DNA of 34,779 bases, from contig DUOL01000072.1 of the NCBI GenBank assembly GCA_012838875.1, positions 1 to 34,779 on the forward strand, read 5' to 3'. The position numbers and the translations under genes were made by a program. The notes beneath the pieces were generated by a model. That model saw only the letters and a list, made by a program, of their open reading frames with translations, searched no databases and had not been told where the DNA came from. This document shows, piece after piece, positions 1-23,648 of the stretch; position 1 is the stretch's first letter; each line of letters begins with the position of its first letter. This DNA is from Bacteroidales bacterium (lineage in GTDB: Bacteria > Bacteroidota > Bacteroidia > Bacteroidales > WCHB1-69).

Positions 1-115
1 CGCGGCGGCAAAAAAGCGAGCTTGTAAGCTCTTTTTGCCGCCTTGCGTCCCCACGGCTTGTGCCCGCGGACTTGGAACCGGGCGCCGACCCCGAGCATAG
101 CGAGGGGGCACGCCC
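1..115 (+). repeat. GC-rich imperfect-palindrome repeat, copy A (left part cut off by window edge)
   Basis: 1-115 aligns almost base-for-base with 23531-23648 and with the reverse complement of 13784-13898. It ends ...ggggcacgccc, followed by an AT-rich tail taattaaaatt. Confidence 0.9.
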
Positions 116-234
116 TAATTAAAATTAAAATTAAAATTATTATTATAAAACTGAAAGATAGAAACCACGAAAATAACCAAAACAGAAAGGTTTATTTTTA
201 AATCCGACTATTTTTGTCGGTGAATAGTGCTAAT

Positions 235-969
235 TTAATGAGCTTTTTTCGTGGCGTTATAGGCAATGACCTCTTCATATTTCCCCATGTCCTGCCAGCT
301 GTCGTCAGAATGGTCGTATGCAACAATTTTATTTTGTGACGCAAGGGTAAGATAGATTTTGGTCAACGAGATTTTTTCATTTTCAGGAATAAGCTCTAAT
401 ATGTTCGGCGACACGATGTGAATACCGCTAAAAGCCAAATTAATAGGGCTTTGCGTAGGGTTTGTTTCAATTTTCTCGCCTGTTTTAATATTTGTCCACC
501 CGCAAAGCTGCTTGGAGTTTTTATCAAAAATAAAATAGCGAAACGTTTCACGATTTCTAACGGCAAGCGTTGCTAAAGGGGCTTGCTGCAAATGGAAATC
601 GCACATTTTTTGCAAATTGATATTAGAAATAATATCGACATTATAGAGCAAAATGGAGTTCGTATTTTGAAAAAAAGGAGAGGCAAATTTCAGTCCGCCT
701 CCTGTGTCTAACAACTTCTCCGACTCATCGGAAAAATAGATATTGGCATTAAAAGGCTTGTGATTATCAATAAATTGGCGTACTAAATCACTAAAATGAT
801 GAATATTGATTACGATATCGGCAATTCCCGCATCGACAAGTTTATTAATTGCATGCTCCAATAGAGTAACACCGTTAATCTCTACTAACGCTTTGGGGCG
901 GTCGGCAGTTAACGGGTAGAGCCTTGTTCCAAGTCCGGCGGCAAAAATCATTCCTTTTAGAGGTAACAT
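235..969 (-). CDS. sugar-phosphate nucleotidyltransferase (NTP_transferase family, MurU / mannose-1-P guanylyltransferase-like)
   Basis: 244 aa. N-terminal GxGTRL nucleotide-binding motif (FAAGLGTRLYPLT). TAA stop. Confidence 0.8.
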   Translation of the reverse strand: MLPLKGMIFAAGLGTRLYPLTADRPKALVEINGVTLLEHAINKLVDAGIADIVINIHHFSDLVRQFIDNHKPFNANIYFSDESEKLLDTGGGLKFASPFFQNTNSILLYNVDIISNINLQKMCDFHLQQAPLATLAVRNRETFRYFIFDKNSKQLCGWTNIKTGEKIETNPTQSPINLAFSGIHIVSPNILELIPENEKISLTKIYLTLASQNKIVAYDHSDDSWQDMGKYEEVIAYNATKKAH

Positions 970-970
970 C

Positions 971-1026
971 TGTTTTGAATTTTGAGTTTTTAGTTTTTAG
1001 TTTTGAGTTATGTGTTTTGAGTTTTG
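971..1026. repeat. degenerate heptamer tandem repeat (AGTTTTG-like, about 8 units)
   Basis: Reads tgttttg aattttg agttttt agttttt agttttg agttatg tgttttg agttttg. It fills the spacer between the tgt stop and the start of the 235-969 gene. Confidence 0.8.
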
Positions 1027-1038
1027 AGTGTGCAAATA

Positions 1039-2166
1039 TTACAATTTTTGTTTTAATTGGGGTATTATTTCATTTTTCCATGACGCGAATACGCCCTCTT
1101 CTATTTTTTGTCTTGCGGTTTTAACTAATTCTAGATAAAAATGGAGATTGTGCAAACTTCCTATCATCATACCCAGAATTTCATCGGAAACGTAAAGATG
1201 TCGCAGATAGGCTTTTGTATATTCTCTATCTGCGAACAGGGAGCTTTGCGGGTCTATCGGCGTAAAATCGTTTTTCCACTTTTCATTTTTCATATTCATC
1301 GTTCCTTCCCAGGTAAAGAGCATACCATTTCTACCGTTACGCGTAGGTAGCACACAGTCGAACATATCGACCCCCATGGCGATACATTCCAATATATTTT
1401 GAGGCGTTCCGACTCCCATGAGATAACGAGGTTTATCTTCGGGCAAGACAGAACAAGCAATATCTACGGCATTATACATCTCTTCGACGTAGCCGCACAT
1501 TCCGCCGATAGCATTTCCTTCACAATTTTGTTCGGCAATAAATTCCGCCGATTGTTTTCTCAAATCCGGAAAAACACTTCCTTGCACAATCGGGAACAAG
1601 GCTTGTGAATAGCCATATTTTGGTTCGGTTCGATTAAAGTGTTCACAACAACGCTTAAGCCATTTATGCGTCAAGTGCATAGACCTTTTTGCGTAGCCGA
1701 TTTCGCACGGATAGGCTGTACATTCATCGAACGCCATAATAATATCTGCTCCGATAGAACGCTGAATATCTATCACTCCTTCCGGACTAAAAAGGTGCTT
1801 AGAACCGTCAATATGCGATTGGAACCAGACTCCTTCTTGCGGTTTTATTTTTCTTCGGTGGCTCAATGAAAAAACTTGGAACCCTCCACTGTCGGTCAAA
1901 ATGGGACGGTCCCAACCGTTAAACTTATGTAAGCCGCCTGCGGCTTCCAGCACTTCTATACCGGGACGTAAATAGAGATGATACGTATTTCCTAAGATAA
2001 TTTGTGCCTTAACCGCCTCTTTCATATCACGAATATGGACGGCTTTCACGGTTCCGAGCGTCCCGACAGGCATAAAAATAGGTGTTTGAATCTGTCCGTG
2101 GTCGGTCGTTAGGACTCCTGAGCGAGCACTACTTTTAATATCTTTTTTTTGAATTTCAAATTTCAT
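1039..2166 (-). CDS. tgt: queuine tRNA-ribosyltransferase
   Basis: 375 aa, full-length Tgt-like sequence (ARSGVLTTDHGQIQTPIFMPVGT, LTDSGGFQVFSL, GVGTP). Confidence 0.95.
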   Translation of the reverse strand: MKFEIQKKDIKSSARSGVLTTDHGQIQTPIFMPVGTLGTVKAVHIRDMKEAVKAQIILGNTYHLYLRPGIEVLEAAGGLHKFNGWDRPILTDSGGFQVFSLSHRRKIKPQEGVWFQSHIDGSKHLFSPEGVIDIQRSIGADIIMAFDECTAYPCEIGYAKRSMHLTHKWLKRCCEHFNRTEPKYGYSQALFPIVQGSVFPDLRKQSAEFIAEQNCEGNAIGGMCGYVEEMYNAVDIACSVLPEDKPRYLMGVGTPQNILECIAMGVDMFDCVLPTRNGRNGMLFTWEGTMNMKNEKWKNDFTPIDPQSSLFADREYTKAYLRHLYVSDEILGMMIGSLHNLHFYLELVKTARQKIEEGVFASWKNEIIPQLKQKL

Positions 2167-2201
2167 CTTGTTTTGTTAGTAAGTCTGTTAGTATTTTAAA
2201 G

Positions 2202-2209
2202 CAAAAATA
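2202..2209 (-). promoter_or_regulatory. Bacteroidota -7 promoter box (TATTTTTG) upstream of tgt
   Basis: Reverse complement of caaaaata matches the TAnnTTTG consensus, about 36 nt upstream of the tgt ATG. Confidence 0.5.
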
Positions 2210-2233
2210 CACTATTTCCTTTTAACTTTAAAA

Positions 2234-2241
2234 TATTTTTG
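2234..2241 (+). promoter_or_regulatory. Bacteroidota -7 promoter box (TATTTTTG) upstream of the GT2 gene
   Basis: tatttttg sits 24 nt upstream of the ATG at 2265, divergent from the tgt promoter. Confidence 0.5.
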
Positions 2242-2264
2242 TTCTCTATTTACGGAGTAATGTA

Positions 2265-3404
2265 ATGTCTTACCAAATTTATATTATTTTCATTACGCTT
2301 TTGGGGATTACCGTTTTAATAAACATCGGTTTTTACGCTATTCTTTTTTCAAAATTTGCCTTTCACAAAGCTAAAAAAGAGAAGCAATCTCCCCAAGAAC
2401 CCGTTTCAATAATAGTAGTAGCAAAAAATGAGGCACACCATCTTATTAACTCGCTGCCGCTTTTATTAACTCAACAGTATAATGATTATGAAGTCATTGT
2501 TGTCAATGACAACTCCGATGACGAAACGGAAGAAGTTTTAGAAGATTTTAAAAATAGGTATCCGCACTTAAAACCTATTAATCTAAAATCATCGGTAACG
2601 ACTATTAAGGGCAAGAAATTTCCTCTTTCGTTGGGAATCAGAGTTGCTAAAAACAATATTATAATTCTTACAGAGCCGTATTGCATACAAGTATCGCCTT
2701 ATTGGTTGCAAAACATGGCAAAACATTACAACCGTAAAACAGAAATCGTATTGGGGTTTGCCAATTACGAGAAAAAGAAAAGTCTCTTTAACGCTATTTT
2801 ACGTTTTGATGCTCTATATAAGACTATTCAAAATTTCTCTTATGCTTTGATGAAAATTCCGATTGCGGGTGACGGGAAAAATTTAAGTTACTCCAAAGAA
2901 CTGTTTATAAACCACGGAGGTTTTACCGCTCACAATCATATTTTTTTCGGAGACGATGACCTTTTTATTAATAAAGCAGCAACAAAAGAGAATTGCAAAA
3001 TTGAATATTCTAAAGATGCAATTATTACGGTAAAATCTAAATTTAACTTTAAATTTTGGCTAAGACAAGAAAAACTAAAGAGTCTTACGCGAAAATTCTA
3101 CTCTAACAAACATAAATTTCTTTTAACACTTTTTGAATCCTCTTCTCTCCTTTTCTACATTTTTCTCACTATAGCTCTCATTTTCCTTCCCTCGTTATCA
3201 CTCACTTGGATTATTCCATTGCTCGTTTTCTTTATCCTTAAGTTTGCTATTCAATATCTTATTGTAGGTTTGTCCGTTTCAAAATTGGGCGAAAAGAAAT
3301 TTATTCCTTATATTTTCGTTTATGATATAGTGTATCTATTTTTGTACTCTTATATTTTGTTGACGGCTAAATGGGGAAAAAACAATAGAAAAAAATGGAT
3401 GTAA
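2265..3404 (+). CDS. membrane-bound family 2 glycosyltransferase
   Basis: 379 aa. N-terminal TM helix, GT-A region (VSIIVVAKNE...YEVIVVNDNSDDET) and C-terminal TM helices. Confidence 0.8.
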   Translation: MSYQIYIIFITLLGITVLINIGFYAILFSKFAFHKAKKEKQSPQEPVSIIVVAKNEAHHLINSLPLLLTQQYNDYEVIVVNDNSDDETEEVLEDFKNRYPHLKPINLKSSVTTIKGKKFPLSLGIRVAKNNIIILTEPYCIQVSPYWLQNMAKHYNRKTEIVLGFANYEKKKSLFNAILRFDALYKTIQNFSYALMKIPIAGDGKNLSYSKELFINHGGFTAHNHIFFGDDDLFINKAATKENCKIEYSKDAIITVKSKFNFKFWLRQEKLKSLTRKFYSNKHKFLLTLFESSSLLFYIFLTIALIFLPSLSLTWIIPLLVFFILKFAIQYLIVGLSVSKLGEKKFIPYIFVYDIVYLFLYSYILLTAKWGKNNRKKWM

Positions 3405-4003
3405 AGAAAAAGATTACCGATAAAGCACAAAGAGATATTCTTTTGGTTACCGATGCTTTGCAAAACGGCAATCAACAGGCGTACGCTCAACTTTTGAAAA
3501 TTTATCGCGACCCTATTTACTATATGTTGTTAAAACTATGTAACAATCCTTATGATGCTGAAGATTTAACCATCGAAGCATTTGCCAAAGCCTTTAAGAA
3601 TCTTCATCAATACACAGACGACTTTGCTTTTTCCACGTGGCTATTTCGAATTGCAACGAACAATTGTATTGATTTTCTGAGACGAAAGAACAAGTCTATT
3701 CGCTGTTTAGACGATGACATTGAGAATTTTGAAGACCAAAGTACAATTTCAGCACTCGTTTCTACGGAGAACAACCCGGAAGAGTCATATATTGAAAAAC
3801 AACGCATACGGACGATGCGTTGGGCGGTGGAACAGCTACGTCCAAAATATAAAGAGCTTATTCGCCTACGCTATTTTGAAGAATTTTCTTACGAAGAGAT
3901 TGCTAATGAGTTGGGAATAAGTATAAATAATGTCAAGATTCAACTTTTTAGGGCTAAAGCCATGCTAACAACGCTGGTAGAAAACTTAAAACATAATATT
4001 TAG
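3395..4003 (+). CDS. RNA polymerase sigma-70 family (ECF-type) sigma factor
   Basis: 202 aa. Region 2 (DAEDLTIEAFAKAF...WLFRIATNNCIDFLRRK) and region 4 HTH (FSYEEIANELGISINNVKIQLFRAK). The start overlaps the GT2 stop by 10 nt. Confidence 0.85.
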   Translation: MDVKKKITDKAQRDILLVTDALQNGNQQAYAQLLKIYRDPIYYMLLKLCNNPYDAEDLTIEAFAKAFKNLHQYTDDFAFSTWLFRIATNNCIDFLRRKNKSIRCLDDDIENFEDQSTISALVSTENNPEESYIEKQRIRTMRWAVEQLRPKYKELIRLRYFEEFSYEEIANELGISINNVKIQLFRAKAMLTTLVENLKHNI

Positions 4004-4013
4004 TTTCCGATTT

Positions 4014-4511
4014 TTATTGTTCCAATTTAAAAAAGTCGTCATAATTCTTTGGATACCACCCTTTTTCGATTGCTTCTTTTTGAGGGAACATAAAGTAGAC
4101 CATTTCCGCCTCCGCACAAAGCTCACCCGCCTCATTTATAATCTCGGCAAAAATATAGCACAAATTTCTCTTTATTTCCCTTATCTTTCCACGAACTAAC
4201 ACGGACGATTGTGTAGACTCCAGCTGTTTTCTATATCGCACTTGTAAACGGGAGGTAACTCCGGAACTCTTTCCTTTGATATAAAGTGTCCATGCTCCGA
4301 TTTCATCGAGAAGGGTCGATTGAATGCCGCCGTGAATAGTTCCCGGATATCCTTCGTACTCTTTGGACGGTTTCCATTCTGCTTGCACATAGTCTCCCTC
4401 CTCAAAAAAATGCAACCGCAAGCCAATCTCATTAGTAGGCGAACAAGCGAAGCAGTGATAGTCATCTTTAGCAAAGACATTATTAATATAACGACGAATC
4501 GGTTTTTCCAT
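4014..4511 (-). CDS. PaaI-family hotdog-fold thioesterase
   Basis: 165 aa with the GTIHGGIQSTLLDE motif typical of PaaI/4HBT thioesterases. Confidence 0.7.
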   Translation of the reverse strand: MEKPIRRYINNVFAKDDYHCFACSPTNEIGLRLHFFEEGDYVQAEWKPSKEYEGYPGTIHGGIQSTLLDEIGAWTLYIKGKSSGVTSRLQVRYRKQLESTQSSVLVRGKIREIKRNLCYIFAEIINEAGELCAEAEMVYFMFPQKEAIEKGWYPKNYDDFFKLEQ

Positions 4512-4722
4512 AATTTTACATTTGTTTTAAATTGATTATTTTAATAAAATAAATAGCCCGTCATCGTAAATTTCATTTTTTCATATCATTTAAACAACTC
4601 TATTACAAAGAGTTAAAAATATGGCGTACAGAATATTTATCTATGCAAAGATAAAATAAAATGTAATAATTAAAAAAAACGTTAATTCGTTGATTTTACA
4701 TTTTTTTTTCAAGCAAAAAATG

Positions 4723-4730
4723 TATATTTG
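4723..4730 (+). promoter_or_regulatory. Bacteroidota -7 promoter box (TATATTTG) upstream of the aminopeptidase gene
   Basis: tatatttgcaac lies 48 nt upstream of the ATG at 4778. The same tatatttgcaa string recurs at 25320 and, on the minus strand, at 16566. Confidence 0.55.
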
Positions 4731-7976: not shown

Positions 7977-8435
7977 ATGGGAGTAAGAAGAAAAAGATTA
8001 GCAGCAGAAGCACGAAAAGAGTCAAAAAAGAATATATACATGGCTCGTTTAATGAATAACCCTACATCACCTCGTAAAACACGACTCGTAGCTGATATGG
8101 TTAGAGGGAAAGATGTAGATTATGCTTTAAATGTATTGAAACACAATAATAGAGAGTCGGCAGAAAAGATTTTTAAACTCTTAAAATCAGCTATCGCTAA
8201 CTGGCAAACCAAAAATGAAGGTGTAAGATTAGAGGATGCTCAATTGTACATAAAAACAATTACGGTTGATGGTGGTAGAATGCTTAAACGTATTCGTACT
8301 GCTCCGCAAGGAAGAGCAAACAGAATAAGAAAACGCTCAAATCACATTACCATCATTCTCGGTGATAGAAATGCCAATATGGATATTGATATAAATGATA
8401 ATAATATAATAGAAGAAACTGAAAACATTAAATAA
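7977..8435 (+). CDS. rplV: 50S ribosomal protein L22 (uL22)
   Basis: 152 aa. [16 protein letters not shown] and [15 protein letters not shown] motifs. Has a short acidic/Asn-rich C-terminal tail. Confidence 0.96.
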
Positions 8436-8443
8436 ATTTTAGC

Positions 8444-9166
8444 ATGGGGCAAAAAGTTAATCCAATAGGTTTAAGATTAGGAATTATTAGAAGCTGGGAT
8501 TCTAATTGGTACGGTGGAAAAAATTTCGCTGATAAAATAGTTGAAGACGACAAAATCAGAAGATATTTGAATGCTCGTTTATATAAAGCCGGCATATCAA
8601 AAATTTATATAGAGAGAACACTTAAGCTTGTTACAGTTACTATCCACACCGCTCGTCCGGGTCTTATTATAGGAAAAGGAGGAACTGAAGTTGATAAACT
8701 GAAAGAAGAGTTGAAAAAAATTACTAATAAAGAGATACAAATTAATATCTCCGAAGTAAAACGCCCTGATTTAGATGCTGTACTGATTGCTCAAAATATT
8801 GCAAAACAGATAGAGGGTAGGATTTCGTACAGAAAAGCTATTAAAACTGCCATTGCTTCTACAATGCGAGCAAATGCAGAAGGGATAAAAGTTTCCATCT
8901 CCGGTCGTTTGGGAGGTGCTGAAATGGCAAGAACAGAGCATTTTAAAGAAGGAAGAACTCCATTACATACTCTACGTGCAGATATTGATTATGCTAAAGC
9001 CGAAGCTCATACGACCTACGGTCGAATCGGTCTCAAAGTATGGATATGTAGAGGTTTAGTTTATGGCAAAAAAGATTTGTTTAACTTGGCAGACAGTGGA
9101 AAAGATGCTAAAGGAGCCGGTGGAAGAAGACCTCCAAGAAGAGTAAGAGCCGAAAAGAATAGATAA
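8444..9166 (+). CDS. rpsC: 30S ribosomal protein S3 (uS3)
   Basis: 240 aa, starts [14 protein letters not shown]; KH domain; position in cluster. Confidence 0.97.
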
Positions 9167-9203
9167 TATTGAATAAAGTAGAAAACAATATAAATATATA
9201 GCG

Positions 9204-9629
9204 ATGTTACAACCAAAAAAGACGAAATACAGAAGACCGCAAAAGGGGAGAATGAAAAATATCACCAAACGTGGAAGTGAGATAGCTTTCGGGTCGTTTG
9301 CCATTAAGACGTTGGAACAACAGTGGATAACCGGTAGACAGATTGAAGCGGCACGACAAGCCATTACACGTTACATGAAACGTGAAGGACAGTTGTGGAT
9401 ACGTATTTTCCCGGACAAACCAATTACTAAAAAACCTGCCGAAGTTCGTATGGGTAAAGGTAAAGGTTCGCCCGAGTTATTTGTTGCTCGCGTTAGTCCC
9501 GGTAGAATTTTATTTGAAGCTGACGGCGTTCCCTTCGAAGTTGCAAAAGAAGCCCTTCGCTTAGGAGCTCAAAAATTACCCGTAGCTACAAAATTTGTTG
9601 TTAGAAGAGATTATTCCGAAGAAATATAA
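9204..9629 (+). CDS. rplP: 50S ribosomal protein L16 (uL16)
   Basis: 141 aa, starts [16 protein letters not shown]. Confidence 0.97.
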
Positions 9630-9634
9630 TAGAG

Positions 9635-9844
9635 ATGAAACAAAAAGTTATACATGAACTTTCTACCCCTGAGGTAATTGAAAGATTAGCGGAAGAGGAA
9701 AAACATTTGATTAAAATGAAATTAAATCATGCCGTATCTCCTCTTGAGAATCCTAATAAGATTAAAGAACAACGAAGAACCGTTGCTCGACTTAAGACAG
9801 AATTACGCAAACGTGAAATTAATCAACAATTGAAATCAGAATAA
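9635..9844 (+). CDS. rpmC: 50S ribosomal protein L29 (uL29)
   Basis: 69 aa, helical; sits between rplP and rpsQ. Confidence 0.92.
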
Positions 9845-9849
9845 GGATT

Positions 9850-10107
9850 ATGGAAGAAAGAAATAAAAGAAAAATCAGAGAAGGTCTTGTTGTTAGTAAT
9901 AAGATGGATAAATCTATCATTGTTAGCGTAGAAAGAAGATTTAAACACCCTAAATACGGCAAGTTTTTAAAGAAAAATTCAAAGTTGGCAGCTCATGACG
10001 AAAAAAATGAGTGCAACATCGGAGATAAAGTAAGAGTTATGGAAACCAGACCCATAAGTAAAACGAAGTGCTGGCGTTTAGTAGAAATTATTGAAAGAGC
10101 GAAATAG
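9850..10107 (+). CDS. rpsQ: 30S ribosomal protein S17 (uS17)
   Basis: 85 aa; [27 protein letters not shown]. Confidence 0.96.
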
Positions 10108-10109
10108 TT

Positions 10110-10478
10110 ATGGTACAACAAGAATCAAGATTATTAGTAGCTGATAACAGCGGTGCAAAAGAAGTACTCTGCATCCGCGTGTTAGGTGGAACTAGAAAAC
10201 GCTACGCCGGCGTAGGAGATAAAATTATTGTTACTGTTAAAAGTGCTATCCCCGCCGGAAATATTAAAAAAGGAACAGTCTCTAAAGCTGTTATAGTAAG
10301 AACTAAAAACCGAATACGAAGAGGGGACGGCTCTTATATCAAGTTTGACGATAATGCCGTAGTTCTGCTTACAGCAGCGGAAGAACTAAGAGGAACCCGT
10401 ATTTTCGGACCTGTAGCTCGCGAACTTCGCGAAAAACAGTATGTGAAAATTATCTCTCTAGCTCCTGAAGTTCTTTAA
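10110..10478 (+). CDS. rplN: 50S ribosomal protein L14 (uL14)
   Basis: 122 aa, starts [18 protein letters not shown]. Confidence 0.97.
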
Positions 10479-10541
10479 GAAAGCAAAAATTAATAAATAT
10501 AAATGGACAATTGACAAAGACCAATTGCAAAAAAAAGAAAA

Positions 10542-10856
10542 ATGAAAATACATATTAAAAAAGGTGATATCGTAAAAGTAATAGCCGGTAATTCAAAAGG
10601 ATTACAAGGTAAGGTACTGAAAGTGGATAAAGATAAGTATAGAGCTTTAGTAGAAGGTATGAACCTCATACAAAAACATACGAAAGCTAATGCTAAAAAT
10701 CCACATGGTGGCATTATTAAAAAAGAAGCCCCTATTCATCTCTCAAATTTGATGGTTGTAGATTCTAAAGGAAATGCAACCCGAATTGGCAGAAGATTAG
10801 GCGAAAAAGGTAAATTAGTTAGATATTCTAAAAAAACAGGAGAGGAGATTAAATAA
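10542..10856 (+). CDS. rplX: 50S ribosomal protein L24 (uL24)
   Basis: 104 aa; [18 protein letters not shown] motif. Confidence 0.96.
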
Positions 10857-11410
10857 TGTACACACCAAGATTTAAAGAGAAATATTTAAAAGAAATCGTT
10901 CCCGCTTTAAAGGAACAATTTGGTTTTACTTCCGTAATGAGAGTACCGAAAATTACCAAAATTTGTCTAAACCAAGGACTTGGTAAATATGGAATCGCCG
11001 ATAAAAAACTCCTCGATGTCGGAGTGGAAGAGATGACAATGATTGCAGGGCAAAAAGCTGTTCAGACAAAGTCTAAAAAAGACATCTCGAACTTTAAATT
11101 AAGACGCGGCATGCCTATCGGCGTTCGAGTAACGTTACGCGGCGAAAGAATGTACGAATTTCTCGATAGATTAGTATCGGTTTCCATTCCTCGTATTCGC
11201 GACTTTAGAGGTATTAGCGATAAAGGATTTGACGGTCGTGGAAATTATACGTTAGGTGTTCCCGAACAGATTATCTTCCCCGAAATTGATATCGACAAAG
11301 TGGCAAAAATTAACGGAATGGATATCACATTCGTTACTACCGCCCGAAACGACAAAGAGTGCTTAGCACTATTAAAAGAATTTGGATTACCGTTTAAAAA
11401 TCAAAAATAG
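10856..11410 (+). CDS. rplE: 50S ribosomal protein L5 (uL5)
   Basis: 184 aa. The ATG overlaps the rplX stop (taATG). Contains IPRIRDFRG. Confidence 0.97.
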
Positions 11411-11413
11411 AAT

Positions 11414-11719
11414 ATGGCAAAAGAATCATTGAAAGCAAAAGAGGTAAAAAGAGCACGTTTAGTGGCTAAATATGCCGCAAAACGGACTGAATTAAAGAAG
11501 ATTATTAACAGCAATGATAATGATTATGAAGCAAAACAAGCGGCTATTATTGCTTTGCAAAAATTGCCACCCAATTCTAACCCGATTAGAATGCATAATC
11601 GCTGTAAATTAACGGGACGTCCAAAAGGATATATACGTCAGTTTGGCATTTCTCGTATTAATTTTAGAGAAATGGCTTTAGCAGGGCTTATTCCCGGAGT
11701 AAAAAAAACAAGTTGGTAA
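11414..11719 (+). CDS. rpsN: 30S ribosomal protein S14 (uS14, long non-zinc form)
   Basis: 101 aa; C-terminal [26 protein letters not shown]. Confidence 0.95.
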
Positions 11720-11743
11720 TATTTTAAAAAGAAGTAGAGAATT

Positions 11744-12142
11744 ATGAATACCGATCCGATTTCAGATTATTTAACAAGAATAAGAAATGCCATTATGGCA
11801 AATCATAAAGTTGTAGAGATTCCAACCTCAAAAATCAAAAAAGAGATTACCAAAATTTTGTTTGAGAAAGGTTATATCTTAAATTATAAATTTATTGACG
11901 ATACCCACCCCGGCACTATCAAAATCGCTCTAAAATATCACCCCGTTACTAAATTGTCTGCTATTAATAAATTGCAACGTGTTAGTAAACCGGGACTGCG
12001 TAAATATGTGAATGTTGAACAAATGCCTTCCGTGTTAAATGGGTTGGGCATTGCCATTATTTCTACATCACGTGGCATGATGACCGATAAAGAGGCTAAA
12101 GCGCAAAACGTTGGTGGAGAAGTTTTATGTTACATTAGTTAA
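11744..12142 (+). CDS. rpsH: 30S ribosomal protein S8 (uS8)
   Basis: 132 aa, starts [16 protein letters not shown]. Confidence 0.97.
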
Positions 12143-12160
12143 AAATAAGGAGAGAGAGAT

Positions 12161-12718
12161 ATGTCAAGAATTGGAAAATTGCCAATCACGCTCCCTAAAG
12201 GAGTCGAAATTTCAAGAGATGAAAAAACAAATATTGTTACCGTTAAAGGTTCTCTTGGCGAACTAAAACAGTATGTTGACGGGGCTATTAACTATACAAT
12301 CGAAGATGGTCATGTAGTTTTAACAAGAGCGACCGAACAAAAAAGACACAAAGCCTTACATGGGCTATACAGATCGCTGCTTGCCAATATGATAAAAGGA
12401 GTTTCCGAAGGTTTTGAAGTTAAACAAGAACTTGTCGGTGTCGGATACAAAGCTGAAGCTAAAGGGCAACAATTAGAACTTTCATTAGGCTACTCACACA
12501 ATATTCTTTTTGAACTACCTCAAGAGGTAAAAGTAGAAACCATTACGGAAAAAGGGAAAAATCCTATTATTGTGCTTAAAGGAACCGACAAACAACTCTT
12601 AGGACATATTGCAAGTAAAATTCGTTCCTATAGAAAACCTGAACCTTACAAAGGAAAAGGTATCCGCTTTGTTGGAGAAGAAGTTAGAAGAAAAACAGGT
12701 AAAACAGCTGAAAAATAA
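12161..12718 (+). CDS. rplF: 50S ribosomal protein L6 (uL6)
   Basis: 185 aa, starts MSRIGKLPITLPKGVE. Confidence 0.97.
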   Translation: MSRIGKLPITLPKGVEISRDEKTNIVTVKGSLGELKQYVDGAINYTIEDGHVVLTRATEQKRHKALHGLYRSLLANMIKGVSEGFEVKQELVGVGYKAEAKGQQLELSLGYSHNILFELPQEVKVETITEKGKNPIIVLKGTDKQLLGHIASKIRSYRKPEPYKGKGIRFVGEEVRRKTGKTAEK

Positions 12719-12736
12719 TAAAAAGGAGATACGAAA

Positions 12737-13096
12737 ATGGCTTATAATCAAAAAGAATATAGAAGAAAACGAATCAAACAAAGAATTCGTAAAATTGTTA
12801 ACGGTACGCCGGAACGCCCGAGAATGTCCGTCTTTAGAAGTAATCACGATATTTACGTTCAGCTTATTGATGATATCGCAGGGCACACCCTATTGTCCGC
12901 CTCTTCTGCTATTCCCGAAATACAAGAACAGAAAATTACAAAAACAGAAAAATCTGCTCTCGTAGGGAAATTAATCGCACAAAAAGCAAAAGAAGCCGGC
13001 ATCGAAAAAGTTACATTCGACCGTAACGGCTATTTATATCATGGTAGAGTTAAATCTTTGGCAGAAGCAGCTAGAGAAGGTGGTTTAATTTTCTAA
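12737..13096 (+). CDS. rplR: 50S ribosomal protein L18 (uL18)
   Basis: 119 aa; [20 protein letters not shown] and [13 protein letters not shown]. Confidence 0.96.
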
Positions 13097-13106
13097 GAAA
13101 AAAAAT

Positions 13107-13625
13107 ATGACAAATATTAATATGCAACGAGTAAAATCAGCCGAAATTGAATTTAAAGACAGATTAGTAGCTGTTAACAGAGTAACAAAAGTAACAAAAG
13201 GGGGACGTACGTTCAGTTTCTCCGCTATTGTCGTAGTGGGTAACGAAAATGGCGTAGTAGGTTACGGCTTAGGAAAAGCAAAAGAAGTTTCAGCAGCGAT
13301 ACAAAAAGGAATTGACGATGCAAAAAAGAACCTTATTCGCGTTCCTATTCTTAAAGGCACCCTTCCGCACGCTCAGGAAGGAAAATATAGCGGTGCGTCC
13401 GTCTTTATGAAACCTGCCGCTCCCGGTACAGGAGTTATTGCCGGTGGTGCTATGCGTGCCGTTTTGGAAAGTGTCGGCATTAAAGACGTTCTCGCTAAAT
13501 CTAAAGGAGCTTCCAATCCTCATAGCGTAGTAAAAGCTACCATCAGAGCTTTGGCACAAATTCGCGACCCCTACGCCGTGGCACAAGTTAGGGGTATCCC
13601 TCTCGAAAAAGTTTTTAACGGCTAA
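13107..13625 (+). CDS. rpsE: 30S ribosomal protein S5 (uS5)
   Basis: 172 aa; [24 protein letters not shown]. Confidence 0.97.
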
Positions 13626-13671
13626 GAATTTATTGCAAAACCTCTATTTTAGAATAAAATATAGCATAAGG

Positions 13672-13708
13672 ACAAGGATTAGCATAAAACTAATCCTTGT
13701 TTTATTTT
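13672..13708 (+). terminator. rho-independent terminator after rpsE
   Basis: Perfect 11-bp stem acaaggattag/ctaatccttgt, 7-nt loop, then tttatttt. Confidence 0.8.
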
Positions 13709-13783
13709 ACGTGGGGTTAAGTAATATCTGAAGTCCTCGACAAATATCTTCTGTTAGGATAAAAATATTTTTATTTTTCTTTT

Positions 13784-13963
13784 GGGCGTGCCCCCTCGCT
13801 ATGCTCGGGGTCGGCGCCCGGTTCCAAGTCCGCGGGCACAAGCCGTGGGGACGCAAAGCGGCAAAAAGAGCTTACAAGCTCGCTTTTTTGCCGCAGCGTC
13901 CCCAACGGCTTCCGCCCTTGCGGGCTTTCCACCTAAGCGCCTCACGCAACCAACTTACTCATG
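13784..13963 (-). repeat. GC-rich imperfect-palindrome repeat, copy B (reverse orientation)
   Basis: 13784-13898 is the near-exact reverse complement of 1-115. The core ends at ...cctcacgc (13947). A further 16 nt (13948-13963) still match the inner flank of copy C at 12/16 positions. Confidence 0.9.
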
Positions 13964-14121
13964 CAGAAATATTAAACTTTGAGCTTTACACGCTTTTTGG
14001 AATAGTATCCGAAAAACTTGTAGAACACAGTGTCCTCTTGTGCCCTCCCAAGTTGTTGTACTACAAGAAAAACGTAATTTGGGGTATGAAACATGAGTTA
14101 GGACTTCACGTTTAAAATTTT

Positions 14122-14327
14122 TTAAAAAACTATTTGACTTTCCTTATCTTGTTTGGGATGTAACGAACGAGGTATCAATTTTCCCAACCATGTCGTTTTA
14201 ATAGTCTGTAAATAGTTGTTTTATGGACTTTCTTTCCATCTAATTTTTCAAAATCCTCTTGTATCTCATGAATCGTAACCAACTCCCCTTTTTCTAAACG
14301 AGAAATATACGAATTAATAAAATCCAT
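14122..14327 (-). pseudogene. IS630-family-like transposase N-terminal remnant (winged-HTH segment, frameshifted and truncated)
   Basis: A 50-aa ORF at 14175-14327 (below the track cutoff) reads MDFINSYISRLEKGELVTIHEIQEDFEKLDGKKVHKTTIYRLLKRHGWEN. After a +1 shift it continues ...KLIPRSLHPKQDKESQIVF*. The pattern xxTIYRLLKRxGW..k.pr..hpkqd..sq resembles the winged-HTH part of IS630/Tc1-type transposases. No DDE domain follows. Confidence 0.55.
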
Positions 14328-14350
14328 TTCTTATAGCCTGTGTAACACTG

Positions 14351-15031
14351 CTATCTTTTCTTTATTTCGTAATACCGTTTGTAATTTTCAATTTGTTTGA
14401 AAAAGTTTTCAGGGGACAATTTTTCTGTTATTAGTTTTGCAAATTGCTTTCCAAACCCTCTTTCCAAATTTGTTTTAATTACTTTGCCTGTTTTTTCGTC
14501 GATATTAACTAAAAATATACAAAGTTCATTGGGTCGGTGTGCTTGCGGAACGTCATAAATAAGTTTCAAATATTTTGTAATGTCTTTTTCATTGATAACT
14601 TCTATTTTTGAGGGCGTTACAGGATCGTTTTTCTTATAATACGGTGTTTGATAACGCATTATAATAATGTGTGCGTATGGAATTTGTTTTGCCTGTATGT
14701 TAGCGGTTTCGCCCATCATATTCTCAAAATAATTGTTAGCATTTTGCTTGTAATTGCTAGTTATAAACTTTATCCCCAAACAAAAGACTGGCGTTCCACC
14801 TTTCAGAACAGCAATATCAACATCTTTCGGATAATACTTTCCTTCAATTGTTGCTTCTTTTGAGCTTTCACTTAGATAGTGAATCTCGTACTTTTTACCC
14901 CATATCTCTTTGAGCGTATCTGCCATAAATTTATGAATTGGAAGAAGTTTTTGGGTACTTCTTGCTCCGTATTCTTTATATTTTTCAAATGAGTTTTTTA
15001 TGGCTTGTATTATTTTTTTTTCTTGGTACAT
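14351..15031 (-). CDS. putative type II restriction endonuclease (PD-(D/E)XK-like), partner of the adjacent methyltransferase
   Basis: 226 aa from the ATG at 15031; the track starts 2 codons earlier at TTG 15037. Candidate nuclease core is PKDVDIAVLKGGTPVFCLGIKF (D...x-K). It starts 2 nt after the methyltransferase TGA. I did not recognise a named REase family. Confidence 0.6.
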   Translation of the reverse strand: MYQEKKIIQAIKNSFEKYKEYGARSTQKLLPIHKFMADTLKEIWGKKYEIHYLSESSKEATIEGKYYPKDVDIAVLKGGTPVFCLGIKFITSNYKQNANNYFENMMGETANIQAKQIPYAHIIIMRYQTPYYKKNDPVTPSKIEVINEKDITKYLKLIYDVPQAHRPNELCIFLVNIDEKTGKVIKTNLERGFGKQFAKLITEKLSPENFFKQIENYKRYYEIKKR

Positions 15032-15033
15032 AC

Positions 15034-16536
15034 TCAAAATAATGTTAATGGATTTTTATAATTTATTTTAAATTCTTTTATCTGCTTGGATGTTATAGAC
15101 TTATAACCGCCTGAAAAATCTTTACTTGTCAAGCGGATATATTTATAAAACTCTTCGGATTGCAACGTATTTTCAATAATTCGCCATTCTGAATGTGGAT
15201 TTTTTTTAATAATAAATAACCCTGAATACATAAGTACATCTTTTGGCAACTTATAAAATTCAATACCATCATTGACGAGTGTACTTAATACAATTTTCTC
15301 ATTATGAATTGATTGCACTCCTTGACTTCGCCCGTATTCGTACCACAAAGCACCTTTATCAATGTCTCTATTTTCCAATTCAGTCCTATTTTTTAGAAAA
15401 TAATTATAGCAATTTGGATAATTTGTTTTCATTTTATCTTCTGGAATAACGTAATACCTACCTTTTATCAATTCATAGGGAAAGATAATTTTGATGTTTG
15501 CATCAATTACTCCTTTAAAACGCGACCCTTTTACAACGGTTTTTAATATACTTTTTTCAATCAATTCATTGTTAAACCACACAAGATTTTTGTTGTCTGA
15601 TTGCGTAATTTTCGCAATAAACACTTTATCTCTCAACGTAGCAAAACCATACTGAACATCAAAAAAATCTTTGATTGCTGAGTTTCTTCCGTTGTTTAAA
15701 TCGTTGAGAAAAACCGTATTCTCATTGTTTGAGAAAGACCAATCTTTGCTATTTAACTCACTGTATTTCACATTATTTACAAAAATAATTTTGTCGTTTT
15801 CTAATTCTTTGTATGTAAAAAAATCTTTATTGTAATTTTTCTGAAATACTGAAATAGCTGTGTATGTGGAAAATCCTTTGAAAAGTTTATTTGCTTTGAA
15901 ATCGATGAGAGTATGTACAGTTTTTTCGCGTTTCAGGAATTCTCTAAATTTCTTATACGAAGAATTGTGAAGATAACTATTTGGGGTAATATACCCTAAC
16001 AAACCACTAGTTTTTAACATTTTAAGCCCCATTTCAAAAAACGAAAGATAAATATCAATCGTGCCTTCCGAAAACTGAAAATCATTTTTCAGAGTTTCCC
16101 TTGTTTCCAAATCTAAGTTGTGTATTCGTATGTAAGGCGGATTGCCAACAACAAAATCAAATTTTGAAATATTGTTTTTATAGAAATCTAATGTATTGGT
16201 ATTTAATATGTTCCAATTTATTTTAGGGAGTTGGAATTCGTTTTTGAGTAATGTATTTAAGTTTTCAATGCATTTAGCATATTCTTTTTCATCTATCTCT
16301 ACACCAACTATATACGTTTCAATATCTAAAATTATTTGTTTGTCGTCTGCCTGATTTTCTCTTGCAATTTTTATATATCGTCTGACAATTTCGGTCAAAA
16401 ATGCTCCATCACCACAAGACGGCTCTAGGATATATTTCTTCAAAATATCTTTGCCATTATAGCCTACAATATCTAATATTTCGCAGACAATCCATTGTGG
16501 TGTATAAACTTGTCCTAGTGTTTTGTGTTTCGACAT
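15034..16536 (-). CDS. gamma-class N6-adenine DNA methyltransferase (TaqI/Eco57I-like with C-terminal target-recognition domain)
   Basis: GQVYTP near the N-terminus, motif I EPSCGDGAF, motif IV GNPPY, and a long C-terminal TRD-like region. I place the start at ATG 16536 (MSKHKTLGQVYTP) because a TATATTTG promoter box lies inside the longer track ORF. It is the only CDS in the window that ends in TGA. Confidence 0.9.
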   Translation of the reverse strand: MSKHKTLGQVYTPQWIVCEILDIVGYNGKDILKKYILEPSCGDGAFLTEIVRRYIKIARENQADDKQIILDIETYIVGVEIDEKEYAKCIENLNTLLKNEFQLPKINWNILNTNTLDFYKNNISKFDFVVGNPPYIRIHNLDLETRETLKNDFQFSEGTIDIYLSFFEMGLKMLKTSGLLGYITPNSYLHNSSYKKFREFLKREKTVHTLIDFKANKLFKGFSTYTAISVFQKNYNKDFFTYKELENDKIIFVNNVKYSELNSKDWSFSNNENTVFLNDLNNGRNSAIKDFFDVQYGFATLRDKVFIAKITQSDNKNLVWFNNELIEKSILKTVVKGSRFKGVIDANIKIIFPYELIKGRYYVIPEDKMKTNYPNCYNYFLKNRTELENRDIDKGALWYEYGRSQGVQSIHNEKIVLSTLVNDGIEFYKLPKDVLMYSGLFIIKKNPHSEWRIIENTLQSEEFYKYIRLTSKDFSGGYKSITSKQIKEFKINYKNPLTLF

Positions 16537-16565
16537 CGTACTTTTTCTTTCTATATTCTGTCTTG

Positions 16566-16573
16566 CAAATATA
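16566..16573 (-). promoter_or_regulatory. Bacteroidota -7 promoter box (TATATTTG) for the M-R operon
   Basis: Reverse complement of caaatata, 30 nt upstream of ATG 16536. Confidence 0.55.
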
Positions 16574-16858
16574 ATACTTTTTTTTGCCAACATTCTTCTT
16601 TTCGCAGCATTGCGTGCAACGGTTCGGGCATTTTACGAAATGATTTGCACTCAACAGCTGATTTATGCAACAAAGATACACATAAAAATAAAATTTTCAA
16701 TTCAATGATTTTAGCTTTTTTATCATTAGGTTACTTTGTATTGTAACTACCTTATAATTAGTGATATAAATTGGCATATTTTATAATTGCTTTAAAGTCA
16801 AGAGTTTTGAATTTTCAATTTGCACTTCTTAATATTTTCTCTTTCCTAAAATCCTTTG

Positions 16859-17040
16859 TACGAGCAAGTTGGCTGCGTGAGGGCGCAGGCGGAAAGCCCG
16901 TAAGGGCGGCAGCCGCTGGGGACGCGGCCGCAAAAAAGCGACTTTAGAAGCTCTTTTTGCCGCCTTGCGACCCCACGGCTACCGCCCGCGGACTTGTAGC
17001 CGAAGACCGACCCGTGAGCGCTAGCGAACGGGGCACGCCC
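16859..17040 (+). repeat. GC-rich imperfect-palindrome repeat, copy C (forward orientation)
   Basis: Core 16875-17040 runs gcgtgagggcgc...ggggcacgccc. It is collinear with copy E, with a variant central loop (gcgactttagaagc) and variant arm segments. Followed by the tail aaaagaaaaata, shared with copy B. Confidence 0.9.
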
Positions 17041-17259
17041 AAAAGAAAAATATGATTTTTATAATGCTTTTACCTTTTTTTATAATTTTAAGTATGGTAA
17101 TTCTGCTATTTTTTTACTACTTTTGTATCCGTTTTGATAAAGAAATATGCGAATGAATAAAATTTCGATATTTGTCGTAAAACGCTTTAAAAATGCACCT
17201 TTATATGCTAAAACTGCAGAAAAGACTTATTTTTATTTATACAAACAATTTCACTAATA

Positions 17260-21338: not shown

Positions 21339-21358
21339 AAGCTCTTTCTACGTTTCTG

Positions 21359-21408
21359 TCTCTCCTTTATCTCTTTCTTAATTGAGTAGGTAAAGGAGAG
21401 ATTTTTTT
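21359..21408 (+). terminator. rho-independent terminator after the M16 peptidase gene
   Basis: 11-bp stem tctctccttta/taaaggagaga, 21-nt loop, then ttttttt. Confidence 0.65.
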
Positions 21409-21444
21409 ATAATCTTATTTTCTTAATAATCAGATTTTTTATTA

Positions 21445-21553
21445 GGGCGTACCCCCTCGCTGCGCTCGGGGTCGGTCTTCGGTTCCAAGTCCGCGGGCAC
21501 AAGCCGTGGGGTCGCAAAGCGGCAAAAAGAGCTTCTAAAGTCGCTCTTTTGTG
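21445..21553 (-). repeat. GC-rich imperfect-palindrome repeat, copy D (reverse orientation, truncated just past the centre)
   Basis: gggcgtaccccctcgctgcgctcgggg...gcttctaaagtcgctcttttgtg. Similarity to the other copies stops at about 21553, where a gene remnant begins. Confidence 0.85.
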
Positions 21554-21738
21554 TCGGAAGGGCAAACTTTTACACGATATTACGGTCGTGTTTGAATATC
21601 TTCTTTAGGATAGCCATAGTCTTCAACTAATTGACGTGAAAATACTTGGACTGCTTCAATTTCTTCAGGCGGCGCAAGCTCATCTCTCCCTGATATGTAG
21701 TCAGCCTGGCAGTTTTTCTTATTCTGTAGTATATGCAT
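21554..21738 (-). pseudogene. remnant of a restriction-enzyme N-terminal (HsdR_N-like) domain gene
   Basis: A 52-aa ORF at 21580-21738 reads MHILQNKKNCQADYISGRDELAPPEEIEAVQVFSRQLVEDYGYPKEDIQTRP. After the TAA the same frame continues YRVKVCPSD and then runs into repeat copy D. The PEE..vq.f...L.edYGYPKE.I motif is typical of HsdR_N-type nuclease N-termini (recognised from memory). Confidence 0.5.
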
Positions 21739-22171
21739 TTGCTGAAAACGAAACTTTTTACTGTAAAAAAATTAATCCCTCACAACGCTAAAATTTCCCA
21801 CATTTTTCATGTTCGCTACGATAACAGTTTCGAGGGCGGTAGGGCGTCAGGAATATGGTTGGTTTACACTGGGAAGTGAGTATAGATATCATCACCCTAC
21901 TCCGGATATATCAGTAAAAGACGGGCATGTTAATAGGTATATAGTAAGATATAGAGGGAGACCATTCATTATTGAACGAAATTTTCGATGGTAATCATTT
22001 CAAAATAAAGAAGTTATTTAACTTCGTGATTTAATACTATCCTATAAATCAATCGCTGAAAAATCATTTTGTAACTTCAACAACGCTTACTCTACCAAGA
22101 ATTACATTAAAAATTGCAACGTTTAATTTCACTCTATTATTTAATTTCATGAAAAACTGTCATTCAATACA

Positions 22172-23233
22172 CTACTCATAATATTGAAATTCACGCTCTG
22201 TGATTTCTTTCGGTGTATCATTTTCGAATGCGATTCGCTTAGTCCAGTTCTTATGTTCGTCATATTCATATTGCCAACTAAATTTCTCCGATGACTTTCC
22301 TTTTGCGTTGCGTCTATTTCCTTCTATCTTATTTCCTTGCTCATCATATTTATAAGTAGTCTTCCAATCTAAACCACCTGTTGAATTGTACTCATTTATC
22401 TCTATCAACTCTCCCTGTCTATCATATTTATAACTATACTTCTCATTTAAGGTGCCGTCAAAATTGTAACGAATCATATTATATTCCATCTTATTTCCAT
22501 GCTCGTCATAATTATAAATACCCTTCCAATTAAAATTACCGTCTGCATCGCACTCATTTTCCTCAATCAATTCTCCCTGCTCATTATATTTGTATGTATA
22601 TTTATAATTTAAAATACCCTTTGCCTTATCATACTCATTTTTTTCAATCAATATCCCCTTCTCATCATATATATAAGTACGCATAATGGAGATGGCATCT
22701 CTTAAACTGTAATTTTTTTCTTTTATCATGTGTCCTTGCTTGTCATATTTATAAGTAGTTCTAAGGAATGATTTACCTTGTAAATTGTATGAACACCACT
22801 TTTCTTTAATCATTTTTCCTTTCTTGTTATACTTATAAATTTTCTTCTCTTTCAAACTATCGTTTGAAAGAGAACCTTTTTCTTCAATCATCTTTCCTTG
22901 CTTATTATATTTATAAGTATACTTCCTATCTAAACTACCATCAGAAAGATACTCATTACTTTCAATCATATTCCCTCGCTCATCATATTGCCGTTGAAAA
23001 TGATATATTACGTTTCCCTTTTTAACTTTTCCCAAACTATTAATCGCTTCATATGTGAATTGGGTATAAGTCTTAACTTTACCTTTAAGACCATCTTTCG
23101 CCCAATTGTTGGATGGTTCGCTATTCTCGCAACCTTGTCCTTGCGTTTGATTTATAAAACCAAATAGTACTAACAACACAAATGCTGTTATTCTCATCTT
23201 TTTTAAGTGTGCTAAATACATTCTATTTTTCAT
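22172..23233 (-). CDS. lipoprotein built from about 9 YD-type repeats
   Basis: 353 aa. Signal peptide with Cys (FINQTQGQGC). Recurrent Y-x-Y-[DN]-x-x-G-x-x-I-E units (YKYNKQGKMIEE, YKYDKQGHMIKE, YKYNEQGELIEE, YKYDRQGELIEI, YKYDEQGNKIEG). Confidence 0.7.
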   Translation of the reverse strand: MKNRMYLAHLKKMRITAFVLLVLFGFINQTQGQGCENSEPSNNWAKDGLKGKVKTYTQFTYEAINSLGKVKKGNVIYHFQRQYDERGNMIESNEYLSDGSLDRKYTYKYNKQGKMIEEKGSLSNDSLKEKKIYKYNKKGKMIKEKWCSYNLQGKSFLRTTYKYDKQGHMIKEKNYSLRDAISIMRTYIYDEKGILIEKNEYDKAKGILNYKYTYKYNEQGELIEENECDADGNFNWKGIYNYDEHGNKMEYNMIRYNFDGTLNEKYSYKYDRQGELIEINEYNSTGGLDWKTTYKYDEQGNKIEGNRRNAKGKSSEKFSWQYEYDEHKNWTKRIAFENDTPKEITEREFQYYE

Positions 23234-23332
23234 AATTTTTTATTTTATAACTATTTACAATCCTATTTTTAAAAGTAAATCAAACCGTCTATCGCTCAAA
23301 AAAACGTTTGATTTTTTTCAATTATATTACGA

Positions 23333-23340
23333 CAAAAGTA
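23333..23340 (-). promoter_or_regulatory. possible -7 promoter box (TACTTTTG) upstream of the YD-repeat lipoprotein gene
   Basis: Reverse complement of caaaagta, about 100 nt upstream of the ORF start. Confidence 0.3.
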
Positions 23341-23481
23341 AATATTTTTTTTTATAAATCAATAGTTTTTTTTTGCCTTATTATTTATCCCGTACTTGTA
23401 TCTTTAAATGCAACAAAAATTTCTGATTTCGAAATTTATAATGTATCCCCTTTGAGGTTAATTTTTCACTTTCCACTTTCC

Positions 23482-23648
23482 GCGTGAGGCGCTTAGGTGG
23501 AAAGCCCGCAAGGGCGGAAGCCGCTGGGGACGCGGCGGCAAAAAAGCGAGCTTGTAAGCTCTTTTTGCCGCCTTGCGACCCCACGGCTTGTGCCCGCGGA
23601 CTTGGAACCGGGCGCCGACCCGTGAGCGCTAGCGAACGGGACACGCCC
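23482..23648 (+). repeat. GC-rich imperfect-palindrome repeat, copy E (forward orientation, full length)
   Basis: 167 nt, gcgtgaggcgcttaggtgg...gggacacgccc, with 113 G+C by hand count. Followed by the tail aaaagaaaa. Confidence 0.92.

Follow-up and report, generated by a model that had tools for sequence, protein, structure and literature searches.

The stretch of 34,779 nucleotides (nt) analyzed here from contig DUOL01000072.1 (assembly GCA_012838875.1, Bacteroidales bacterium), called the window over its whole length, carries five copies of a repeat belonging to a real, high-copy family of structured elements that is lineage-specific, very abundant and without a counterpart in Rfam 15 or in plasmid, phage and viral collections. 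Each repeat is built around a G+C-rich core whose specific fold is strongly supported by base-pair covariation. The copies are arranged in head-to-head inverted pairs, which is a new result, and the pairing around accessory genes was unexpected. From these features we infer a mechanism in which the repeat would be mobilized in trans as a folded single strand. The initial annotation of the window had recognized the core, but it overlooked the extensions at its head and tail, the covariation in favor of one specific fold and the head-to-head pairing.

All figures given for the family rest on one scan in which metagenome contigs were searched for the apical motif of the element. At least 120 further stretches (~1 Mb, hereafter the listed stretches) are found among the matches listed in this one scan, which bears out the high copy number and dispersal anticipated from the window. 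The listed stretches originate from about 20 datasets, one of them titled activated sludge. A profile search over them returned at least 202 non-overlapping matches, and they hold at least 99 full-length copies with distinct flanks and at least 93 distinct core sequences.

The five copies of the window (A to E) lie exactly where the initial annotation had placed them, and their contrast with AT-rich surroundings is as it described: the G+C fractions of A, B, C, D, and E are 0.68, 0.67, 0.68, 0.62, and 0.68 (62-68%), against 0.36 (36%) for the rest of the window. Its hand count for copy E (113 G+C among 167 nt) and the identity of the 47 nt at 1-47 with 23531-23577 are both exact. A conserved 19-base pattern matches five times in the window vs. 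0.02 times in shuffles, whereas a weak similarity at 921-946, within a NTP-transferase gene (26 nt, 81% identity), was taken as chance. Copy A is cut by the window edge alone, the complete copy with its 5' module being present in another assembly; copy D is truncated, as had been noted, and it is the 5' end, model positions 1-55, that is missing. The parts of the five copies are the following.

1-115, plus strand: core of copy A, model positions 49-163, cut at the window edge (complete copy and 5' head module at L139:10860-11058)
116-146, plus strand: 3' tail of copy A, A/T-only, TAATTAAAATTAAAATTAAAATTATTATTAT (tail consensus drawn from 99 copies)
13758-13783, minus strand: 3' tail of copy B, AAAAGAAAAATAAAAATATTTTTATC, facing the end of the S5 gene
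13784-13947, minus strand: full core of copy B, 164 nt, type I (covariance-model score 191 bits)
13948-14010, minus strand: long 5' head module of copy B, GGATACTATTCCAAAAAGCGTGTAAAGCTCAAAGTTTAATATTTCTGCATGAGTAAGTTGGTT (same module ahead of cores in L114, L049, L105, L030, L075, and L125)
16845-16874, plus strand: short 5' head module of copy C, CCTAAAATCCTTTGTACGAGCAAGTTGGCT
16875-17040, plus strand: full core of copy C, 166 nt (covariance-model score 177 bits)
17041-17064, plus strand: 3' tail of copy C, ~50 nt upstream of the -7 box of the old yellow enzyme (OYE) gene, TACTTTTG
21422-21444, minus strand: 3' tail of copy D, TAATAAAAAATCTGATTATTAAG, facing the end of the M16 peptidase gene
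21445-21553, minus strand: core of copy D, 5'-truncated, model positions 56-163 (L037 and L010 diverge from the window within it, at 21475)
23440-23481, plus strand: alternative head-side modules of copy E, a small hairpin, CCCCTTTGAGG, then TTTTTCACTTTCCACTTTCC
23482-23648, plus strand: full core of copy E, 167 nt (covariance-model score 183 bits)
23649-23672, plus strand: 3' tail of copy E, AAAAGAAAATTATTACAAATTTAA

Written 5'-GCGTGAGG...CACGCCC-3', the unit consists of optional A/T-rich heads, a G+C-rich core of 161-167 nt and an A/T-only tail. The length of ~165 nt first proposed thus holds for the core, but not for the repeated unit, which continues past it on both sides. The ends of the core share GCGTG/CACGC, and the two types of tail are those distinguished previously, namely AAAAGAAAA for B, C, and E and TAAT.AAAA for A and D; over the family, the tail comprises ~25 conserved A/T-only bases, TAATAAAAATTAAAATTATTTTTAT or AAAAGAAAAATA..., holding a small palindrome. 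A 30-nt head, CTTAAATGGCTCTGCACGAGCAAGTTGGCT, is found upstream of ~60% of the copies, and a core follows this short head in 91 of 104 fuzzy matches, only ~2 real heads being without one; the possibility that the head module is an independent insertion sequence (IS) end or a target site was ruled out, a head without a core being almost never seen. Some copies have a longer, 63-nt version of the head, and others display alternative heads, either small hairpins of the type xxxATGGCA-loop-TGCCATxxx or a TTTTCACTTTCC module. A T/G-rich module, GTTTTGAATTTTGAGTTTTTAGTTTT..., found at 972-1039 and 16804-16836, is present at the head side of many copies at other loci and also occurs alone in the window, between two genes and without a core. 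Internally truncated copies mostly retain their 3' end. The stop-free G+C-rich sequence could be read as an open reading frame (ORF) of ~65 codons, for which the head module supplies an ATG and the tail supplies stops, but this coding reading was ruled out by the 1-nt indels (161-167) and the base-pair covariation, and the sequence is therefore not a gene.

That the element folds on itself had been proposed from its imperfect palindrome, and copy E indeed folds at -104 kcal/mol (z = -7.3); the opposite strand folds nearly as well, as would be expected of a near-palindrome. In the core fold, a 5-bp closing stem (GCGUG/CACGC) is combined with a bulged hairpin of ~45 pairs, whose internal loops and apical region are invariant, and with a small 3' hairpin. 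When 52 pairs were scored on 93 distinct cores, 99.2% of the cells were paired, and changes on both sides were found at 19 of the 52 pairs, vs. 7.7 +/- 1.3 in shuffles and 1-6 in slid controls. Compensatory changes are found in the closing stem (GCGTG/CACGC to GTGTG/CACAC), in helix 3 (GGT/ACC, GGC/GCC, and GCC/GGC) and elsewhere (GGGC/GCCC to AGCC/GGCT; GGGG/CCCC to GAAG/CTTC). In a subfamily of nine copies with 57% G+C, the middle helix is swapped for an AT-richer sequence with its pairing intact, and the base, the GGAAAG//ACUUG internal loop, the apical AAAAAGAGCG..UUUAGAAGCUC region and the 3' hairpin are retained. The written strand has ~144 G-U cells against 9 A-C cells, mostly from three positions; these wobbles indicate that the written strand is the constrained one, RNA and single-stranded DNA fitting this pattern alike.

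No match to a catalogued family was found in the collections covered, which were Rfam 15, plasmid and phage records and viral contigs. At gathering scores, Rfam 15 returned for the window the tRNA-Leu alone, and relaxed searches with copy E and a doublet (E-values up to 10 and up to 1) yielded nothing but generic miRNA-hairpin models and other matches below threshold, which scored 13-27 bits where the cut-offs are 37-168. Plasmid and phage records had no match to the element; among viral contigs, one pattern had no match and a second had three chance matches, and a scan of genome collections with the G+C-only pattern CACGGCNNNNGCCCGCGGACTTG listed chance matches in G+C-rich genomes, in which nothing beyond the pattern aligned. 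The proteins of the window are encoded, in the same gene order, on metagenome contigs of ENA, JGI, and Logan (the window matches contigs from ERZ27280799, ERZ27249274, JGI 3300002898, and JGI24712J26585), and the nearest named relatives of its M16 peptidase, all 'MAG: Bacteroidales bacterium', are at most 65% identical. In 37 kb from three relatives whose M16 peptidases are 70-87% identical, no copy was found, even with the covariance model, where ~5 would be expected at the density of the window (~1 copy per 7 kb). Cores are 97-98% identical beside coding DNA that is just 63-72% identical, which fits, as judged from such comparisons, either a recent spread or a strong constraint.

The orientation of the copies is far from random. 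Among unique adjacent pairs, 59 of 65 are inverted (40 head-to-head and 19 tail-to-tail) and six are direct (p = 5e-12), and the bias persists when spacers of up to 300 nt are left out (42/48 inverted, p = 1e-7); no hidden copy was detected by the covariance model behind the six same-orientation pairs. The median length is 1.06 kb for head-to-head intervals vs. 7.5 kb for tail-to-tail intervals (p = 1.5e-8), and 17 head-to-head intervals of 55-260 nt form doublets. An inverted partner within 3 kb is found on the head side of 39 of the 66 informative copies and on the tail side of one, and none of the 66 has a neighbor in direct orientation within this distance. Doublets with related spacers occur at sites whose outer flanks are unrelated, so that the doublet seems to be copied as a unit, in which whole core and tail constitute an inverted end of ~190 bp. 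Each divergent core subfamily occurs within a short doublet whose other member is a canonical type I core, which suggests that the two ends of a doublet differ. The doublet spacers at L042:10613-10851, L025:156-393, L096:1875-2097, and L073:10136-10392 carry a pair of -7 boxes of the Bacteroidetes type that diverge from one another, TAAGTTTG lying on one strand and TAACTTTG or TAGTTTTG on the opposite one; both are aimed sense-wise into a core. These spacers also have a conserved leader of ~100 nt with a CGACTTAAAAGTCG hairpin.

The contents of the two kinds of interval can be compared. Restriction-modification or toxin genes are frequent between heads, where EcoRI R and M genes, Eco57I and N6_N4 methylases, GmrSD and Rhs tips are found, and SecA, tRNA synthetases, phosphoenolpyruvate carboxykinase and ribosomal proteins between tails. 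The window obeys the alternation rule, its order being A (plus), 13.7 kb of housekeeping genes, B (minus), an IS630-type remnant and a restriction-modification system, C (plus), the OYE and M16 genes, D (minus), a putative HsdR-like fragment and a YD/Rhs protein, and E (plus). The contents of its two head-to-head intervals are as follows.

14125-16593, minus strand: contents of the B-C interval
14125-14327, minus strand: frameshifted IS630-type helix-turn-helix (HTH) remnant
14351-15037, minus strand: ORF of 228 amino acids (aa) without a Pfam match
15034-16593, minus strand: Eco57I-family methyltransferase
21580-23233, minus strand: contents of the D-E interval
21580-21738, minus strand: ORF of 52 aa, ending ...QVFSRQLVEDYGYPKEDIQTRP and abutting the truncated copy D, which we take to resemble the N-terminus of a type I restriction HsdR-like protein
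22172-23233, minus strand: YD/RHS-repeat protein

The last of these genes matches the RHS_repeat (YD) family, is lipoprotein-like and has internal repeats with a period of 78-84 nt at 22315-23011 (minus strand). Nine short ORFs starting with a MET..YFYHPDHLGS-like sequence, presumably orphan Rhs C-terminal tips, are clustered near copies in L099, L101, L103, L120, L130, and others, often with a CCCCTTCGGGG hairpin module upstream.

It can be hypothesized, and is tentatively preferred here, that the element is a non-autonomous, structure-dependent mobile and recombinogenic repeat of the kind formed by repetitive extragenic palindromes (REPs), bacterial interspersed mosaic elements (BIMEs), REPINs, and miniature inverted-repeat transposable elements (MITEs), and that it is mobilized in trans. 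The covariation over the whole hairpin and the wobble confined to one strand argue for recognition of a folded single strand, and thereby favor a trans-acting enzyme of the HUH/RAYT type. The element would thus be mobile, and its folded single strand, presumably of DNA, would be recognized, rather than duplex DNA, by an enzyme whose gene lies at another place in the genome, for which a nuclease resembling the REP-associated tyrosine transposases (RAYTs) of the HUH class would be the leading candidate. Spread would occur mainly as head-to-head inverted pairs with their tails outward, and the space between the heads may gather or swap accessory DNA, e.g., restriction-modification systems or Rhs toxin tips. 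A further proposal, which we regard as unlikely, is that the head-to-head pairs are the ends of an undescribed mobile or cassette-exchange system of Bacteroidales, in which folded elements of ~200 nt, read single-stranded by a dedicated enzyme, would bracket and move 0.05-7 kb of DNA, often a restriction-modification, GmrSD or Rhs-tip cassette, the genome-wide alternation being its footprint.

Several observations weigh against the trans-mobilized repeat. With a core 4-8 times the length of a REP and without a GT[AG]G or CGTC foot, the element is a poor REP. Neither tblastn searches with RayT-, IS200-, and IS630-like queries, which were approximate sequences, nor a scan for HUH and Y..NP motifs found anything in the listed stretches. 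Mobility through single-stranded DNA of the lagging-strand template would predict an orientation bias related to replication rather than alternation. Neither an empty site with exact edges nor a target duplication was found; the only empty site, the spacer of the closest relative (L134), is too diverged for a junction to be placed, and the strain-level contigs searched for empty sites all retain their copies. Some head-to-head intervals carry ordinary genes, e.g., TrmD/RimM and Lgt, and the contig pairs that diverge at core edges could be assembly chimeras.

Known repeats resemble the element in part. Like REPs, BIMEs, and REPINs, it is a high-copy, intergenic, G+C-rich, lineage-specific and non-coding hairpin; it shares the inverted doublets of REPINs, the alternating orientation and conserved linker motifs of BIMEs, the hairpin upheld by compensatory change of REPs and, in its complementary ends that make a closing stem, a feature of double-foot REPs. 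The RAYT subclass 2.6 of Bacteroidetes is associated with 'atypical secondary structures', and RAYT subclass 2.4 with 'double-foot' REPs (PMC6006769, PMC2817692, PMC3116915). As in RAYT systems, the enzyme, if any, would act in trans from a single-copy gene; unlike in these systems, no RAYT was found beside the element in the listed stretches with the approximate queries. Its core is much longer than a REP unit, as had been remarked, and has a branched fold (161-167 nt vs. 20-40 nt for REPs); in place of a foot it has the invariant 5' end GCGTGAGG, GTAG being found only at a variable loop position. Unlike in BIMEs and REPINs, alternation spans kilobases and the pairs enclose genes. With MITEs (Correia/NEMIS, ERIC/IRU, RUP, BOX, Nezha, bcr1) the element has in common a length within 100-300 nt, an intergenic location, a non-coding hairpin and many copies, as well as long inverted ends if the doublet is the unit. 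However, the terminal inverted repeat of a single core is limited to GCGTG/CACGC (5-7 bp, where ~15-30 bp are typical of MITEs) and is continued by a long imperfect internal palindrome; no parent IS with the same ends is found in the listed stretches, no target duplication is demonstrable there, and it is the fold, not the termini alone, that is conserved by covariation. In short, the element is high-copy, extragenic and arranged in inverted, alternating doublets as REPs, REPINs, and BIMEs are, but it departs from REPs in size and foot, and from MITEs in that, as far as the listed stretches show, it has no parent IS and no demonstrable target duplication.

Comparable elements are also found in organelles. 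Yeast mitochondria have mobile G+C-rich palindromic clusters, the GC clusters. Repetitive hairpin-forming elements have been reported in sponge mitochondria (PMC2800124). Such organellar elements are, like the present one, G+C-rich, proliferating, intergenic in an A+T-rich background and without an encoded enzyme; they differ in being organellar, mostly shorter than 60 nt and unrelated in sequence, and they are not known to be paired around gene cassettes.

An alternative, which seems rather improbable, is that the cores are the long terminal inverted repeats of a family of DDE-type cut-and-paste transposons, the short doublets being MITEs and the pairs of 1-7 kb deletion or cargo derivatives whose transposase is lost or located elsewhere. 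Pairs that are head-to-head with their tails outermost, partners that lie nearly all on the head side and whole doublets recurring at different sites would all be expected of such transposons. So would the absence of a complete block from a relative: in the closest one (L134, M16 peptidase 87% identical), S5 is followed by a 300-nt spacer and OYE, without B, the restriction-modification genes or C, and the window flanks of B..C align to both ends of this spacer, so that one lineage has the whole B..C block and the other lacks it. Incidentally, the ribosomal-protein operon of the window ends after S5, without L30, L15, and SecY, and the next conserved gene is the OYE-type oxidoreductase (regions 7977-13625 and 13626-17259); as the S5-OYE junction is also found in L134 (1565-2400), this operon break predates the insertion of the element. 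Most cores are flanked by ...TTA/GGGCG and CGCCC/TAA..., which is compatible with a TA duplication, and an IS630-type remnant (14125-14327, minus strand) lies just inside or beside B, encoding a frameshifted N-terminal winged HTH whose database relatives carry PF13592. However, this remnant is found at one locus only among the listed contigs, and the database sequences closest to it are short fragments, hence IS630 is not supported as the parent element. As the initial annotation had stated for the window, no intact transposase lies within or beside any copy, which holds for the listed stretches too, where none lies between the members of any pair, and no transposase family recurs around the copies there. 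The flanks are A/T-only, with fuzzy edges, and a TA duplication would be compatible with the TAAT-type tails but not with the AAAAG-type ones. Moreover, 27 of the 66 informative copies have no partner within 3 kb, and repeats bound as duplexes give no reason for the covariation of a ~45-pair hairpin or for a helix replacement that preserves pairing.

The same covariation could reflect a role in RNA, a reading to which we give little weight: the copies would be dispersed genes for a small structured RNA, or cis-acting 3' structures co-opted as terminators, insulators or mRNA stabilizers, as proposed for REP/BIME and ERIC, and selection on transcripts would keep the fold. The invariant internal loops with possible tandem G.A pairs, the invariant apical sequence and the G-U wobbles confined to one strand would agree with this. 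In one class of doublets, a conserved leader of ~100-130 nt leads with its TAAGTTTG -7-like box into a core, a TAACTTTG/TAGTTTTG box leading into the partner, and transcripts exiting a head-to-head interval would traverse both cores sense-wise. The genomic placement argues otherwise. All copies are intergenic, as had been noted for the window, none lying within a long ORF there or among the listed copies; the four configurations of flanking genes are about equally frequent (16, 23, 22, and 19), and orientation relative to the upstream gene shows no preference (46 same, 38 opposite). On the sense strand, the Bacteroidetes -7 motif is found upstream of 20 of 95 copies, with no enrichment, so that a promoter of its own upstream of every copy is not supported. 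Downstream -7 boxes, at varied distances and with varied sequences, are found for 45 copies; as this matches the 46 copies whose next gene is co-oriented, they are taken as host promoters. The closing stem is not followed by a U-tract, no Rfam family matches, and hundreds of near-identical copies would be unusual for a bacterial RNA gene. On a separate point of placement, a 17-member family of large secreted proteins beginning MKKSLQILMLVAVFSVIGG... is recurrent beside copies (L074, L078, L026), and in three of its diverged members the start codon follows the element at a distance of ~155 nt.

Finally, the cores might be sites of a dedicated site-specific recombinase that bound exchangeable or invertible gene modules without transposing themselves, by analogy with folded attC sites and with the pdif modules of Acinetobacter plasmids, but this is very unlikely. 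The resemblance to attC would lie in the recognition of a folded strand with conserved unpaired bases, and that to pdif in alternating sites around accessory-gene modules; here too, orientation alternates across kilobases, with defense and toxin genes between heads and housekeeping genes between tails. Two independent assemblies (L037 and L010) leave the window at 21475, inside copy D, where an alternative haplotype with a tail-to-tail junction form is found, and further contig pairs share their order as far as the edge of a core, past which they differ. In rearranged copies (L090:2535-2721, L037:6400-6470, and L010:4573-4617), the 3' end of one copy is joined, reversed, to the interior of a second copy where GGGCG provides a microhomology, which creates the palindromic tail-to-tail junctions (L090, L037). 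Against this, no recombinase gene is linked to any copy in the listed stretches, no integron integrase is found near copies in the window and no Xer link is seen; essential genes lie within some head-to-head intervals; the sites of known systems measure 28-141 nt, pdif sites being plasmid-borne and of 28 bp, and attC arrays are co-oriented next to their integrase whereas the present copies alternate; and several of the variants could be assembly chimeras.

Two other features of the window were recorded. A stretch with 13.5% G+C (25201-25400) lies just upstream of a gene encoding a chitobiase-domain protein sorted by the type IX secretion system (25386-26858), and the sole Rfam or ARAGORN match is the tRNA-Leu (CAG) at 31732-31818 (minus strand).

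With ~1 copy per 7 kb, the element would be expected to fragment short-read assemblies of this lineage. In the single case looked at, the contigs of five different assemblies all end at copy A, none extending past it. A covariance model of the element would help to flag and bridge such breaks. If the trans-mobilized repeat proposed above is real, the element would be among the largest and best-structured REP/MITE-type repeats in bacteria, in a phylum where such elements have barely been described. Its covariation-defined fold with invariant loops is a concrete substrate for finding the enzyme or an RNA-binding partner, and the head-to-head pairs around restriction and toxin genes suggest how uncultured Bacteroidales may organize or exchange their defense cassettes.

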